A stretch of 64,000 nt of DNA from Longimicrobiales bacterium (GTDB taxonomy: Bacteria; Gemmatimonadota; Gemmatimonadetes; Longimicrobiales; Gaopeijiaceae), in contig OZ220732.1 of assembly GCA_965116905.1 (NCBI GenBank), forward strand, positions 4,128,001 through 4,192,000, given 5' to 3'. Of the stretch, positions 44,290 to 54,318 are shown piece by piece (position 1 is the first letter of the stretch; every line of letters starts with the position of its first letter). Both the position numbers and the translations under genes were made by a program. A model generated the notes under the pieces. That model did no database searches and was not told where the DNA came from. It was given only the letters and a program-made list of their open reading frames with translations.

Positions 44290-44772
44290 TCATGTGAACA
44301 GCCGTTCGTCCCACCACACCGGCTCTTCGGGACCGGGTGCGAGTCGTGAGAACTCCGGGTGATTCGCATTGATGATGATGTTCCGCTCCAGCCGAACGAC
44401 GACGGAAGGGACGATCAGGACAAGGCTCCGCCCTTCGGCGTACCATTGGTGGCCAAACCTCCGGGCCGACGGGCTGTCCGGAAGCTGCCAGCCTGGCAGC
44501 GTATCGGTATCCGCGATTTCGCAGCTCGTACCCGCAGGGATCTCGGTCCTGACAAAATGCTGGTTTCCGGGCGGAGGACCGTTCCATCGGACCAGCGTCT
44601 CGAGCATTGCCGTGGAGTAGCGCTCCGAGGCGTAGATGACCTCGTCGCCCACATCGTGCCAGCGTCCGGAGACCCGTCTGGCACCTTCGGGACTGAAGAC
44701 GGGCCACCGGCCCTGCGAGTCACCGATTCGATAGGCAGTGAGCGACTCCGTGAGGCGATGTCGAACGGTCAA
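44290..44772 (-). CDS. RES-domain toxin (NAD+ phosphorylase family)
   Basis: AYRIG, GARRVSGRWH, IYASE, AMLE, VPSVV, ERNIIIN, WDERLF. Confidence 0.9.
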   Translation of the reverse strand: MTVRHRLTESLTAYRIGDSQGRWPVFSPEGARRVSGRWHDVGDEVIYASERYSTAMLETLVRWNGPPPGNQHFVRTEIPAGTSCEIADTDTLPGWQLPDSPSARRFGHQWYAEGRSLVLIVPSVVVRLERNIIINANHPEFSRLAPGPEEPVWWDERLFT

Positions 44773-45236
44773 ACGGCGACGCCGGCCTCGGCCCGCCAGA
44801 CCAGATTCAGCACGGCGTCCGCACCGGGCGAAGACGCGAGTGCCAGTTCCAGGGGTGATTCGCCACCCAGCAGTGGATGGGGGCGAAAGAGGAAGTCGTG
44901 GATCCTGGGCACGTCCCCGTGAAATGCCGTTCCGATCGCATCAAGCACCCGCGCCAGGTCGTAAAGCCGCTCGCTGTGGGACCGGGACAGGGTCCGACCG
45001 CTTTTCCTGCGCCGATGAAGCGTGGCCTCGGAAGCGACCTTCCCCTCGATGCGGGCGCGCCCGACAAGTTCTCCAAGTGCATTCACGGCACTGACCGGCA
45101 ACCCCTCGGCGACCATTCCTGCAAACGCCAGCTCGTCGAGCTGTTCCGATTCGTCCAGATCCAGAAGCCGGGCAAGCCTGCGGGCGGAAGTCGCAGGCAG
45201 GCGGCCCGGTTCAGCGTAGGCGGCAAGGGCGTTCAA
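44769..45236 (-). CDS. Xre/MbcA/ParS antitoxin
   Basis: GLP, TLHRRRK..LS..SERL, PHPLLGGESPLELA; RBS ggag before TTG; overlaps the RES gene. Confidence 0.88.
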   Translation of the reverse strand: MNALAAYAEPGRLPATSARRLARLLDLDESEQLDELAFAGMVAEGLPVSAVNALGELVGRARIEGKVASEATLHRRRKSGRTLSRSHSERLYDLARVLDAIGTAFHGDVPRIHDFLFRPHPLLGGESPLELALASSPGADAVLNLVWRAEAGVAV

Positions 45237-49141: not shown

Positions 49142-50330
49142 CCCGCCGCTCCGGTGCGGCGCTCGCGGTGTCTCCGCTATTGTCCCGGAGGACCGTGATC
49201 GAGGCTCGGCCGATGTAGTTGCCGCCCGCGCGGGTGGCCCGGACCTGAATGGTCCCTGACCCCGTTCCGGTCGCGGTCACGAGACCATTGCTGTCCACCG
49301 TCACCACGTGCGGGTGGCGGGCGGTCCAGATGTAGTCGGTGTCCTCGACTTCGTTGCCGTTGGCGTCACGCGCCACCGCGGTCAGCCGGATGGTGTCTCC
49401 GACGACCTCCAGGGTGTCCACTTCCGGCGTGACATCGACGCCGACTGCCAGTTGCGCCACGCTGATCGACGCCGAGTCGGCCAGCGCTCCTGTCTCTGCA
49501 TAGATATTCGTGCTTCCGGTACGCACCGACGTAACCAGCCCGGACATGTCGACGGTTGCAATCCCGCTGTTTTCCGAAGCCCAGGTGACGCTGATGCCGG
49601 GAACCGCATTTCCGTTGGCATCGAGAACTTCGGCCGACAGACGCACTGTGTCGCCGACCGAGAACATCGTGTGGGCGGATGGCGACACGTCCAGTGCGAC
49701 GGCCTCCACGGTCACCATCAAATCCGCCGTGGCGCGAACCCCTCCGGCCCCGGCCGCAATCTCCGCGCTTCCAATGCCCGTGGAGGTGGCCAGGCCGGTC
49801 GCGTCCACGGTCGCGACGGAGGTGTTGGACGAACTCCACGTGAAGCTGGCGTCGGCAACCGCGTGTCCGTTGGCGTCGAAGGCCTCGGCCGTGAACTGCA
49901 CCGTCTGACCGATCGAACTGAGCGACGCGGTGCCGGGCGAGACATCGATCCGGACCGGCTGCTGCGCAACGGTCACGTTGGCGCTCCCGGAGGCACTGCC
50001 GGAGGTCGCCGTGATCGACGCGGGTCCGTTCGCGACCGCTGTCACGGTCCCGTTGGAACCCACACTGGCAACCGCAGGGTCACTGCTTCCCCATGTCACC
50101 GATACGCCCGCCATGGGCTGCCCACGCTGGTCCAGCACGGTAGCGGTCAGCTGCACCGTCGCCCCGATCGATGCCAACTGGGCAGTCGCGGGGGTGACGT
50201 TGATGGTCGTGGCGACCGGAGGGTCGACCGGGTCCGTTGGTGTTGGCCCAGGTTCGTCGCCGCCGCACGCGGCGTTGAAGATCAGCACGGTGACGGCAAG
50301 TGCGCCGGTCCACGGCTCTAGTCTACGCAT
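49125..50330 (-). CDS. Lipoprotein with four tandem Ig-like (Big_2) domains
   Basis: Lipobox NAAC; four repeats of T(V/I)xLxA..D.NG...TWxS...VATVD..GLVT. Confidence 0.88.
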   Translation of the reverse strand: MRRLEPWTGALAVTVLIFNAACGGDEPGPTPTDPVDPPVATTINVTPATAQLASIGATVQLTATVLDQRGQPMAGVSVTWGSSDPAVASVGSNGTVTAVANGPASITATSGSASGSANVTVAQQPVRIDVSPGTASLSSIGQTVQFTAEAFDANGHAVADASFTWSSSNTSVATVDATGLATSTGIGSAEIAAGAGGVRATADLMVTVEAVALDVSPSAHTMFSVGDTVRLSAEVLDANGNAVPGISVTWASENSGIATVDMSGLVTSVRTGSTNIYAETGALADSASISVAQLAVGVDVTPEVDTLEVVGDTIRLTAVARDANGNEVEDTDYIWTARHPHVVTVDSNGLVTATGTGSGTIQVRATRAGGNYIGRASITVLRDNSGDTASAAPERRGEREP

Positions 50331-50638
50331 GCCCTTATCCCCCTGGTGATGAGACGTCACGGGGTTCGCAGGTTGCGCCCCTTTATTATAACCCCCACGC
50401 CCAGACGTGTGCCCCCTCCAGTTGTGCCGGTGATCGGCAGGAGAGTCCGGGCCGTCGATTTCGGGGGTTCCCGATGGAGCCGGGGGATCGTGTCACCTCC
50501 GCGGGTGGCAAGCGCGTGAGCGTCGGCGCGATGTAGCTGACGGTCCTGGCGGGCGGGCGCCAAGGCTCGCGGCAGCGGGCAGGCCACCCCTGGTTGGCGG
50601 GCGGCGTCGAGTGGGCAGACTGGGGGCGCCCATAGGAG

Positions 50639-50675
50639 CATGCCGGTGTCCCGGGATTTGCCGCGGAAACGTGGG
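50639..50675. repeat. Left inverted repeat flanking the DUF222-HNH gene
   Basis: catgccggtgtcccgggatttgccgcggaaacgtggg; 34/37 identical to the reverse complement of 52538-52574. Confidence 0.85.
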
Positions 50676-51086
50676 GTGACGATCCGAGGCAGCCGCCACC
50701 TCGGTGCCCCGCCAGCGGCAGGCCAGACTGAGGCAACATCCGTTAGCCCACTGGCCCATCTCCGCAGCCCATCGCCGGACCGATCCCGGGACCGCGCTTT
50801 CCAACCCCCCGCTGTCCCAAACCGTCGAAACACAGGCCGATCCTGCTATAGACGGGTTTTGAAACGGCGGTTTCGGCGAGGTCCGGGACCCGCTGGCGGA
50901 TGACCCCCAGGAGCCACCGGCGGCCCGCTGGCGGGCGATCGGGCATCGGCGACCCTTCCACGTCATCCCGACCCGAGATCGTGCGTCCTGGGCCATCACA
51001 GAGGGCCGGAAATCGGCCGTTATCTTTCAGGTGCACGGAAGCACAATTCACATAAGCCGTTGCCGGACTTGAACCTGGAGGATCAC

Positions 51087-52535
51087 ATGAACACCACGCA
51101 ACTCGGAGAACGGATCGCCGAACTCGCCGCCCGGATCAACATCGCCACCCACGAGATGCTCACCCTCGTCGCCGAGTTCGACCGCCGCGAGGGATGGGCC
51201 GACGCCTTCGACTCCTGCGCCGAGTGGCTCGCCTGGCGGACCGGACGCACGGTCGCCACCTGCCGCGAGAACGTACGCGTCGCGCATGCGCTCGAGGACC
51301 TGCCCGCCACCTCGGCCGAGATGAAGGCCGGGCGCCTCTCCTACGCCAAGGCGCGGGCCATCACCCGGGTGGCCACGCCCCGGACCGAGGCCGAACTCCT
51401 CGACTACGCCCGCAAGGGCTCGGCCGCGGCGGTGGAGCGCATGGTGCGGGGGGTGAAGCACCTGTCGCGCGACGGCGAGATCGGGGCCGAAGAGGCCCGG
51501 CACCGGGCCCGCACGTTGTCGGTCGTCATCGCCGCGGACGGGACGTACGTGGTGCGGGGCCGGCTCGAGCCCGAGGCCGGAGCCGTGCTGATGCGGGCCA
51601 TCGAGGCCGCGAGCGACGCGCTGTACCGGGGCGAGGACCCCGATGCGCGGCCACGGAGCCGCCAGCGCAGGGCCGATGCGATGGGGCTCGTCGCCGAGCG
51701 GGCGCTGGCGGCGGGGCTGGGAGCGGGGGCCGATGCGAGAGAGGAGGCCGACGCGGGGGAAGCGATCGCGGAAGCGACGCCGAGCGGGACGCGGGCCGAG
51801 CGGTACCAGGTGACGGTGCACACCGAGATGGCCACGCTGGAGGAGGGCGGCGCGGGGGGCCGGTCGGAGCTCGACGGGGTGCGGGTGAGCGCCGAGACCT
51901 CGCGGCGCATGGCGTGCGATGCGTCGCTGGTGGGGATGCTGCACCGGGAGGGCAAGGTCGTCAGCGTGGGGCGGAAGACGCGGACCATCCCGCCGCACCT
52001 CCGCCGGGCGCTCGAGGAGCGGGACCGGGGCTGCCGGTACCCGGCCTGCGGGAGCCGGTTCACCGAGGCGCATCATGTCCGGCACTGGGCCGACGGCGGC
52101 GAGACGAGTCTGGCGAACACGGTGCTGCTCTGCCGGCGGCACCACCGGCTCGTGCACGAGGGCAGGGTCCGGATGGCGCTCGACCGGCACGGCCGGGCGG
52201 TGTTCTTCGCGCGCAGCGGGGCGGCGGTCGCGAGCGCGCCCCCGCTGCCGGAGCCGAAGCTGCCCCTGCCGCCCCCGCCCCCGCTTGGGCCCGGCGAGAT
52301 GTACAACGGTGCGGCACGACTCCTGGACTCGGCGATCCCATGGGAGATCGAGGCCGCGGCACGGGAGGCGGTGGAGGCGGCACCGGAGGCGGGCGAGGTG
52401 GGCGAGCAGGCCGGCGAGCCGGGCGAGGTGGTGGAGCAGGCCGGCAGGGCCGACCGCAGAACCGACCGCAGACGCGAGGACCCGGACCGCCGCAGACGCC
52501 AGGACAATCCGCCACCACCCGCCCAGGCCGCCTGA
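51087..52535 (+). CDS. DUF222 (13E12-like) domain HNH endonuclease
   Basis: FDRREGW...SCAEWLAWR, GRLSYAKARAITRVA, QRRADA, RRMACDA, RDRGCRYPAC..AHHVRHWADGGETSLANTVLLCRRHHRLVHEG; RBS ggagg. Confidence 0.9.
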   Translation: MNTTQLGERIAELAARINIATHEMLTLVAEFDRREGWADAFDSCAEWLAWRTGRTVATCRENVRVAHALEDLPATSAEMKAGRLSYAKARAITRVATPRTEAELLDYARKGSAAAVERMVRGVKHLSRDGEIGAEEARHRARTLSVVIAADGTYVVRGRLEPEAGAVLMRAIEAASDALYRGEDPDARPRSRQRRADAMGLVAERALAAGLGAGADAREEADAGEAIAEATPSGTRAERYQVTVHTEMATLEEGGAGGRSELDGVRVSAETSRRMACDASLVGMLHREGKVVSVGRKTRTIPPHLRRALEERDRGCRYPACGSRFTEAHHVRHWADGGETSLANTVLLCRRHHRLVHEGRVRMALDRHGRAVFFARSGAAVASAPPLPEPKLPLPPPPPLGPGEMYNGAARLLDSAIPWEIEAAAREAVEAAPEAGEVGEQAGEPGEVVEQAGRADRRTDRRREDPDRRRRQDNPPPPAQAA

Positions 52536-52537
52536 GT

Positions 52538-52574
52538 CCCGCGTTTCCGCGGCAAATCCAGGGACACCCGCATG
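52538..52574. repeat. Right inverted repeat flanking the DUF222-HNH gene
   Basis: cccgcgtttccgcggcaaatccagggacacccgcatg, starting 2 nt after the stop codon. Confidence 0.85.
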
Positions 52575-52646
52575 TCGGGATGGGACAGGGACCGGCCGCA
52601 CAACGACCCCGGAAGCCGGCAGCCGGGCAAGCGGTGCCACGCATGA

Positions 52647-52727
52647 TCGGCCCGCCACGGACGCTCGGCCCGCCACGGACGCTCGGCCCGCCACGGACGC
52701 TCGGCCCGCCACGGACGCTTGGCCCGC
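52647..52727. repeat. 4.5 x 18-bp perfect tandem repeat
   Basis: tcggcccgccacggacgc x4 plus a partial copy, no spacers. Confidence 0.9.
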
Positions 52728-52776
52728 TGCGGGCCCACGACCTCTGCGGGCGACCGGGCCTGACCCCGTAGCTCGC

Positions 52777-54318
52777 TTACCAGCTCCAGGCCGGGTCCAC
52801 CGCCTTTACCGCGAGCCCAAGCGCTTCCAATTCGCGGTCGCGGCGGTCCGACGCATAGGCTGCGGGGGAGCGGTGGCTTTGCACCACCATGACCAGGTCG
52901 CGCGACGGAACGATATAGGTGCTCTGGTTCCCGGCACCGAGCGCGAAGTACGCATCGAGCGGCAGGGTCGGGACCCGATCGCCGCGACCGCTCTCGTCCG
53001 GCGTATTCACCCAGAACTGCCCGCCATAGACCGGCGGGTCCCAGGCCGGCGCCGGCGAACTCACGAATTCGACAAACTCCTCCGGCAGCAGCCGCTCGCC
53101 GTTCCACATGCCACGCTGCAGGTAGAGCAGCCCGAGCCGCGCCCAGTTCCGGGGCGTGCCGTAGTTGTACCCGGTCAGGATGAAGTTGCCGTGAATGTCA
53201 GTCTCCATGATGAACCGGCGGATTCCGATCTTGTCGAAGAGCGCCCGCTGGGGCCAGGACAGGTATTCCTCGCCAAGCTCGTTTTCGACCGTGCGCCGCA
53301 CGATGTACCCGAGTGTCCACGGGTCCGAGTTGCGGTAGCGGCCGACCGTATTGGGCGGGAACTCGGGCTCTCGCGTCGTCGAGAACCTGAATACGTCGAT
53401 CGGCGCTTCGTAACCCATCCAGTGATCCCACTGCCCCGGCACGAACGCCGACGCCATCTGTTCCGGGGTTGCTCCCGAGTTGGTGAAGCGGAGGCCGCTC
53501 GACATTCGAAGCAGGTCCGCAATCCGGATCACGGCGCGCGGATCGCCGGCTGAATTCTGCCACTCCGGCACCGGCGCCGCCTGCCAGAGCTCGAGATGGC
53601 CCATCTGGATGAGACGGCCGATAAGCGTGGCCGTCATGCTCTTCCCCATCGACCAGCTCTCGAGCTGCGTGTCCTGGTGCACGCCGGGACCGTACTGCTC
53701 GGCGACGAGACGCCCGCGATGCACCACCACAAAGCCGGCCCGGTTGTCCCCGGGAGTGAGCATGACCCGCACCGCTTCCGCCAGCAGTCCGCCGTCCACA
53801 TCGTCGGGAAGCGGCCCTTCCGGGAGAAGATCGCCCATCGGCCACGGCGTGGACGCCGCGTCGGGCAACGCGCTCACCACCTCGCGCGGGGTGAAGAACA
53901 CGTTATCGGTCCAGGGTGGCAGGATGACGCACCCCTGGTCGCCAACGTGCCGCGCTCTGCCGGACACTCTGCCGGACGCTCTGCCGGACGACCTGCCGGA
54001 CCCTCCATCCCGCGTCGTGGTCACGATGCGCCGCTCCTCGTCCACTTCGAAGGCAAAGTGGCCGGCCTCGTAGTCGCTCACGTCTTCATCGGTGAGGAGA
54101 ACGCTCTGGTAAAGCGCGTCACTCCGGTCGCGTTCCGAGACCCAGATGGCCGAGCAGAACCGTTTGGCGAATCCGTTGAGCGCAAACTCGGGCGGCGGCA
54201 CGGGGGACGCAGCGACCGTACCAGCGACCGCGCCAGCCCCGGGCGCTTCAGCCGCCTCGCAGGCAAAGCCGACGACGGCCAGAGCCGCAACCGTGCCGAG
54301 ACTTGTGATCGTCTTCAC
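52777..54318 (-). CDS. Serine hydrolase, beta-lactamase/class C-like (lipoprotein)
   Basis: SxxK SWSMGKS, LLRMSSGL, YRN, LFDKIG, WARLGLLYL, YGGQFW. Confidence 0.88.
   Translation of the reverse strand: MKTITSLGTVAALAVVGFACEAAEAPGAGAVAGTVAASPVPPPEFALNGFAKRFCSAIWVSERDRSDALYQSVLLTDEDVSDYEAGHFAFEVDEERRIVTTTRDGGSGRSSGRASGRVSGRARHVGDQGCVILPPWTDNVFFTPREVVSALPDAASTPWPMGDLLPEGPLPDDVDGGLLAEAVRVMLTPGDNRAGFVVVHRGRLVAEQYGPGVHQDTQLESWSMGKSMTATLIGRLIQMGHLELWQAAPVPEWQNSAGDPRAVIRIADLLRMSSGLRFTNSGATPEQMASAFVPGQWDHWMGYEAPIDVFRFSTTREPEFPPNTVGRYRNSDPWTLGYIVRRTVENELGEEYLSWPQRALFDKIGIRRFIMETDIHGNFILTGYNYGTPRNWARLGLLYLQRGMWNGERLLPEEFVEFVSSPAPAWDPPVYGGQFWVNTPDESGRGDRVPTLPLDAYFALGAGNQSTYIVPSRDLVMVVQSHRSPAAYASDRRDRELEALGLAVKAVDPAWSW

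Follow-up and report, generated by a model that had tools for sequence, protein, structure and literature searches.

The window analysed here is a stretch of 64,000 nucleotides from a Longimicrobiales bacterium, in which a gene for a DUF222-HNH protein is enclosed by inverted repeats. The question is what such an arrangement represents. A reading made from the letters of this DNA only (the sequence-only reading) had taken it for a mobile or repeat-associated element, similar either to an insertion sequence (IS) or to a RAYT/REP pair. According to our analysis, it is real and likely represents an old DUF222-HNH cassette that has end repeats of its own, spreads slowly and homogenises its own copies.

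The layout described in the sequence-only reading was confirmed. The arms (50639-50675 and 52538-52574; 37 nt, 92% complementary) are the longest inverted repeat within 49500-53500. They enclose 411 bp of non-coding leader and one open frame of 482 aa (alternative TTG start upstream, at 51060), and the right arm begins 2 nt beyond the stop codon, which ends at 52535. A CCCAT match noted outside each arm is real, but it is not a separate feature: comparison with relatives shows that the full end repeat has 49 bp (50627-50675 and 52538-52586) and includes it. The two 49-bp ends of the window unit are identical at 39 of 49 positions. The inverted-repeat alignment score is 59, compared to values below 34 in all reversed-sequence controls at 57 homologous loci (selected from 80, with 23 duplicates or truncated loci left out). 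The features are:

50593..50626, plus strand: G-rich ragged left flank, common to one other copy (copy D)
50627..50675, plus strand: left 49-bp end repeat, with a GTCCC-type pentamer, CATG, GTCCC and TTTGCCGCGG; left-end class
50676..51086, plus strand: non-coding leader, 411 bp between left arm and ATG
50814..50889, no strand assigned: inverted pentamer pair in the leader (GTCCC at 50814-50818, GGGAC at 50885-50889)
51087..52535, plus strand: DUF222-HNH gene, 482 aa, open reading frame under purifying selection
51132..51476, plus strand: predicted ParB/Noc/KorB-type helix-turn-helix DNA-binding domain (residues 16-130, structural model)
51885..51899, plus strand: codons for VSAET; most homologues have a parS-like palindrome here, which is not formed in this clade
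52041..52157, plus strand: HNH nuclease domain, in which Cys, His and Asn are present at the conserved positions
52538..52586, minus strand: right 49-bp end repeat, inverted; its outer edge is the limit of likeness among the four copies of the genome
52636..52727, plus strand: 18-bp tandem array of 5.1 copies, outside the right end

The left boundary of the unit is not sharp. The leader is conserved across the genus from 50814 onward, and four of the five pairs of its inverted pentamers are invariant in all 13 aligned leaders, which makes this pair a candidate for extra binding sites. The density of GTCCC near the unit is barely higher than the background of its own genome (about 4 versus 3.3 per kb). 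A structured leader RNA is not supported, as there is no Rfam match and consensus folding (-7.7 kcal/mol) shows no covariation. Neither is a hairpin within the repeat, as the four strands fold no better than shuffled sequences (z-scores -1.14 to +0.57). A Sigma-70 promoter search found none. The array at 52636-52727 is absent from the other three copies of the genome and is thus probably outside the unit; it is deleted in a contig of one sequencing run. Short degenerate tandem arrays (16-19 bp) are frequent just outside the repeats of many copies, and some of them are made of the terminal word of the repeat. Elsewhere in the window (44290-45236), an ordinary RES-Xre toxin-antitoxin pair is encoded.

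The unit is multicopy, as is often the case for genes of this type. The complete 4.2-Mb genome has four copies of this 2-kb unit with 90-94% DNA identity: the window copy, another that is full-length, a third with part of its interior deleted and a fourth (copy D) split by about 3.3 kb. A degenerate pattern of the repeat has exactly eight matches in the genome, each of them at an end of one of the four copies, and none when the pattern is read backwards. The repeat is thus linked to the DUF222-HNH genes, which was one of the two outcomes envisaged in the sequence-only reading, the other being a randomly dispersed repeat. On the right, the four copies are alike up to the outer edge of the repeat and no farther; on the left, the likeness ends raggedly. 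The insert of copy D (L003:5960-9300) carries two genes without a Pfam match, and its left junction opens with the terminal word of the repeat, TGTCCCAT.

The same genome codes for two further DUF222-HNH proteins, which have 41-44% identity and represent a second family (L004:4871-6408, L005:5113-6709). This family is bounded by an unrelated 22-bp palindromic motif, found at about 18 other places in the genome, many of them between 2.2 and 2.4 Mb. The dispersed 22-bp motifs could alternatively be the sites of a regulator. Two copies of the motif are fused to the palindrome of the DUF222-HNH family (GTTTCAGCTGAAAC) in a manner resembling collapsed elements. The contigs L284 and L310 carry the 49-bp repeat, and their flanks are located no more than about 1.5 kb from the site of the second-family element in L004, a hint that both families use the same regions.

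How far does the unit extend beyond this genome? Protein matches were obtained in 24 of 41 genomes, and the related records are labelled Longimicrobiales or Gemmatimonadota. Sequencing runs that contain this DNA are largely sponge metagenomes (runs with a small share were left out). The repeat pattern has 8-32 matches per genome in ten genomes of the genus and none in the reversed control. An order-wide draw returned the repeat from 9 of 121 genomes, all of this genus; the search had no match for the 49-bp repeat in 102 genomes from other genera, and the repeat is absent from the viral collection searched. The end repeats fall into a left class of 52 distinct sequences and a right class of 53, in both of which conserved blocks are fixed and the variable spacers have constant length. 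In the loci examined in relatives, the repeats face inward around the gene and are often stacked two or three deep. In G014 and G065, the shared sequence extends 100-170 bp past the repeats, which are subterminal there. Long inverted ends occur in only 5 of the 57 homologous loci and were rejected as a family-wide trait on this count.

Some further observations concern individual relatives. A 21-bp palindrome, ACCCTGACGTWACGTCAGGGT, is found at the far left end of many of their copies (L037-L043, L060-L063, L240-L253). The window's own genome has 18 such sites, and the palindrome is found at 4 of 30 element sites, with 0.21 expected; it resembles operators of the MerR type. In L055, from the distant host G018, the element clusters with its counterparts in G014 and G065 and has a site in common with them, possibly by regional transfer. 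L132, a 2.8-kb contig from a bin labelled Chloroflexota, has a copy with 90% protein identity and is probably misbinned.

The relatives also contain shortened forms: deletion derivatives of 605-857 bp, solo repeats (some beside the ends of unrelated genes) and a six-copy tandem array. Gene-less repeat pairs, a possibility raised in the sequence-only reading, do exist, with lengths of 130, 238 and 280 bp in G020. The derivatives look like decay in place, because they are mutually different and one of them shares its site with a longer copy of another genome. The 130-bp gene-less pair (L097, G020) and a solo repeat (L109, G009) occupy the same site, beside a gene that we recognised by eye and take to be recA. 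Six repeat copies in G001 (L057:4929-6161, L058, L059, L061, L105 and L107) are interrupted by an IS110-family element (1542 bp where complete), which is located at the same base of the 49-bp repeat. One end word of this element also has a single match in the genome of the window.

Inverted ends, gene-less pairs and cargo-interrupted copies would also be found if the cassette were non-autonomous, with another transposon or recombinase acting on the repeats in trans and the HNH gene being a passenger. We consider this very unlikely. All eight repeats of the complete genome bound DUF222-HNH copies, and the repeats at the loci examined in relatives bound such genes, their remnants or nothing. A target duplication is not seen (see below), and the sole transposase identified is that of the IS110 element, which is inserted into the repeat and not bounded by repeats.

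Attention now turns to the protein encoded by the unit itself. Both domains are found by Pfam above the curated cut-offs (DUF222, PF02720, E 4.5e-22; HNH, PF01844, E 2.3e-6). Beyond these and some sub-threshold HNH matches, Pfam and NCBIfam assigned nothing to the 482-aa protein, and no DDE transposase was detected. The predicted structure has a mean pLDDT of 83 over the full length and of 97 for the N-terminal 130 residues. Structure searches with this N-terminal model have ParB, Spo0J, Noc and KorB DNA-binding domains at the top, the first four rows being of the ParB family. The best match is a ParB DNA-binding domain (Z 9.1, rmsd 2.8 over 101 residues), which is moderate for a helical domain. 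In Foldseek, the first 17 rows shown all belong to the ParB/Spo0J/Noc/KorB family, but with E-values of 0.07-1. With ParB proteins from the phylum, HHalign gives a weak match (probability 6.5%, score 22.2; 30 shuffles reached 18.0 or less). The N-terminal domain is thus predicted, on the structural model, to fold like the DNA-binding domain of ParB and Noc. An N-terminal CTP-binding (ParBc) domain has no Pfam match, and the protein begins with the helix-turn-helix-like domain. By sequence, the solved structures that match best are the HNH portions of IscB, over about 50 residues (E 4.5e-5). The gene is under purifying selection: over 209 codons and 19 pairs, dN/dS is 0-0.19 within genomes and 0.20-0.37 between them. 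The family is very large, with 24,788 representatives at 50% identity matching the window protein; a plasmid search yielded only three weak matches.

A domain of this type raises the question of which DNA it may recognise. ParB and Noc bind palindromes such as TGTTTCACGTGAAACA (PMC7383237). In the DUF222-HNH family, the 57 homologous loci have 44 instances of the palindrome GTTTC-N4-GAAAC within the gene or close to it and one in the 230 kb farther out; the same half-sites at spacings of 0-3 or 5-8 do not occur at these loci. The locus search selected for the peptide at that position and not for its codons. In the second family, the palindrome is kept although the amino acids vary there. Alignment of the helix region at 130 loci reveals two groups. 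The palindrome is missing in 39 of the 42 loci with the 49-bp repeat (the other three are IS110 junctions) and present in 65 of the 88 without it. Asn at residue 62, in the predicted recognition helix, is found in 40 of the 42 repeat-bearing loci and in none of the 88 others. The repeat of this genome holds one intact half of the palindrome (GAAAC), and even that has been lost in the genomes of three relatives. The exchange of palindrome for repeat is confined to a single clade and counts as one event. It suggests, without proving it, that the 49-bp repeat may have replaced the parS-like palindrome as the address of the protein.

With respect to the genome as a whole, the family palindrome was considered as parS and rejected, the actual parS pair being adjacent to parB near the skew minimum. 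The genome has 27 GTTTC-N4-GAAAC sites, compared to 1-6 at other spacings. Most have an AGCT core, they lie between and inside genes, and one coding site is conserved in four relatives.

Has the unit moved? At the window site, an element, a remnant or a repeat is present in 5 of 21 relatives. The sequence-only reading had envisaged an empty site in relatives; the unit is indeed missing in the other 16, but a precise empty site was found at none of the 14 sites and 15 loci compared, because the intergenic DNA is too diverged for junctions to be read to the base. Ten of the 16 have a DUF1028 gene at this site, and one close relative has a 16-bp gap. The carriers placed on the host tree form one clade (one marker region; two carriers were left off the tree), so the window unit was probably gained once, with the DUF1028 gene replaced or later lost. 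The comparison shows that the unit was inserted at the window site after the genus had diversified, long ago. Many sites that are filled in relatives are empty in this genome, and all four sites of this genome have copies or remnants in close relatives. The 92 mapped flanks collapse into 30 sites, many of which are common to several species.

A recent insertion was not found. From both flanks, related strains have contigs that continue into the repeats, and no strain-level empty allele of the window site was among the 15 listed of 31 joints from four sequencing runs. A weak joint from 50561 to 52230 (21-nt side) was not trusted as an empty allele. Flanks taken from metagenomes match this genome at no more than 91% and carry no strain-level information. 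The sequence-only reading was correct in seeing no clear target-site duplication: across 49 loci, the two junctions have a longest common word of 4.78 nt on average, compared to 4.79 nt in 294 mismatched pairs, although old insertions could have lost a duplication.

These data bear on the idea that the DUF222-HNH protein excises and integrates the unit in the manner of a new transposase, be it by cut-and-paste or by copy-out/paste-in. The right end, which is sharp in all four copies of this genome, and the distinct classes of left and right ends would be in accord with it. A target duplication is lacking, however, the left end is ragged and the repeats are subterminal in two relatives. Neither an excision footprint nor a circle junction at the central CATG had a strict match in this genome; beyond it, there was one doubtful footprint match among the relatives' loci analysed, and one site in five relatives. 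In addition, HNH domains are hydrolytic and not strand-transfer enzymes. We regard a transposase role as improbable.

What can be seen clearly is that copies are overwritten. In a tree of 33 copies, these group by genome and not by site (one genome is unresolved), and four same-site clades were rejected (p-AU 1.5e-5 or lower). The patchwork is visible in the window copy, which is 98-100% alike to copy C from alignment column 200 on and 62-75% before, where it follows copies B and D. The copies are thus homogenised within each genome. Whereas the host G001 groups with this genome, its copies are placed with those of G014 and G065 (p-AU 0.016), a discordance that weakly hints at horizontal replacement. 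Copying from one end to the other within a copy, an idea derived from one shared change in copy C, is not supported, as the ends of the same copy have 11.8 differences in a set of 43 copies, compared to 11.0 between copies.

At about even confidence, we propose that the unit is a selfish DUF222-HNH (13E12-type) cassette, which would bind and nick its own ends and copy itself by recombination. The encoded protein could plausibly read the end repeats, to judge from the modelled domain. It would bind the 49-bp repeats through the predicted ParB-type domain, and the HNH domain would nick DNA at or near the repeat. Other small HNH enzymes are strand-specific nickases (PMC3592412). Host repair would then copy the cassette, rarely into new sites and often over sister copies. 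Copying would be recombinational (nick-primed template switching or gene conversion) and not cut-and-paste. Such nicking and repair would account for the missing transposase and target duplications, for ragged or stacked ends, for deletions lying between the ends and for overwriting. The repeat brackets the gene across the genus and was not found in the genomes searched from other genera, which argues for this cassette. Several observations argue against it: neither a recent insertion nor a precise empty site was found, the shared sites are old, the fold match is moderate, the repeats are subterminal in two relatives, long inverted ends are confined to 5 of 57 loci and the intact GAAAC half-site is lost in three genomes. 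Passive RecA conversion alone, which can homogenise paralogues (PMC13061034), also counts against it.

The last point leads to the main rival. The repeats may be operators for the protein itself or for a host regulator, the copies would stem from old host duplication in variable regions, passive RecA conversion would keep them alike, and the nuclease would have no role in spread; the gene may even serve the host. Old shared sites and purifying selection fit well with this, as do the solo repeats beside unrelated gene ends and the lack of a strain-level empty site. For 13E12 loci, conversion is documented, and the accessible part of the source does not show a role of the nuclease in it (PMC13061034). 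An operator, however, needs no inverted twin past the stop codon, and the right-end class is kept in 53 distinct copies. Furthermore, the end motif of the second family in this genome is a separate, unrelated one, gains occurred at unrelated sites along the host tree, and the tree of the units departs from that of the hosts. On balance, we find the operator explanation rather unlikely.

It is tempting to go one step further, and we do so tentatively, since this wider proposal is possible but to be doubted. DUF222-HNH cassettes might be a separate class of mobile elements without a transposase, in which an HNH nickase would be directed by a ParB-type domain to the end signals of its own element, with host repair doing the copying. 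This clade would then show how an address was rewritten from an in-gene parS-like palindrome to paired 49-bp repeats, with a change in the recognition helix. If true, this would be a new route of DNA mobility and provide a small, sequence-addressed nickase. DUF222-HNH is a very large family, which includes the mycobacterial 13E12 repeats; these repeats have lately been linked to inversions and to conversion, without an assigned function. In this clade the ends are defined, the smallest pair has 130 bp and specificity may have been switched naturally, so that it is a good test system, from a marine bacterium, for a possible mobility without a transposase.

How does the cassette relate to known systems? 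Classical IS elements and MITEs share the single gene between inward-facing repeats and the internally deleted derivatives. Membership among IS elements, as suggested in the sequence-only reading, does not hold: the unit has no DDE enzyme or other transposase, no target duplication, and ends that are ragged or subterminal (the repeat is terminal on the right in this genome and subterminal in G014 and G065). Its derivatives are mutually different and, unlike MITEs, not amplified.

The RAYT/REP-like alternative was not upheld either. RAYTs are single-copy HUH/Y1 transposases of about 500 bp, and REP repeats occur in hundreds (PMC3337134). Both systems (including REPINs) link a nuclease gene to a repeat family of its own, include inverted doublets without a gene, persist for a long time at shared sites and have repeats that are targeted by an IS110 element; some IS110 elements target REP sequences (PMC8450116). 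The window unit differs by having an HNH and not an HUH/Y1 enzyme, four gene copies, a repeat that is not a hairpin and only 8-32 repeats per genome. The gene-less doublets of its genus look like decay products and, in contrast to REPINs, are not amplified.

Free-standing HNH homing endonucleases and IscB share the HNH domain. The IscB model scores 18 bits on the protein (cut-off 175), and neither a RuvC part nor a guide RNA was found. Homing endonucleases serve one homing site, whereas the unit occupies many non-homologous sites. With ParB-parS, Noc-NBS and KorB-operator systems, the protein shares the predicted helix-turn-helix fold, and the family palindrome, CGTTTC-N4-GAAACG, resembles parS (TGTTTCACGTGAAACA) and NBS (PMC7383237). 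In contrast to ParB and Noc, the window protein has no CTP-binding domain and is fused to a nuclease, and its clade has lost the perfect palindrome.

The closest counterparts are the REP13E12 loci of mycobacteria, which also have DUF222 and HNH domains, are dispersed in multiple copies and show conversion between copies. These loci convert often, without a defined function (PMC13061034), they drive inversions via recombination between copies (PMC13157036) and they appear in searches for transposon ends (PMC10589994). LexA-dependent or DNA-damage induction has been reported for mycobacterial 13E12 members (PMC13157036). Among the listed publications on DUF222, 13E12 or REP13E12, no title or abstract opening deals with end repeats or mobility, most subscription journals being outside the search, and a search for literature on HNH elements without a transposase returned nothing. 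In the accessible parts of the sources, REP13E12 is described without end repeats, a binding site or a mobility mechanism. The window unit, by contrast, has 49-bp inverted ends, derivatives and site gain, and its relatives are labelled Gemmatimonadota.
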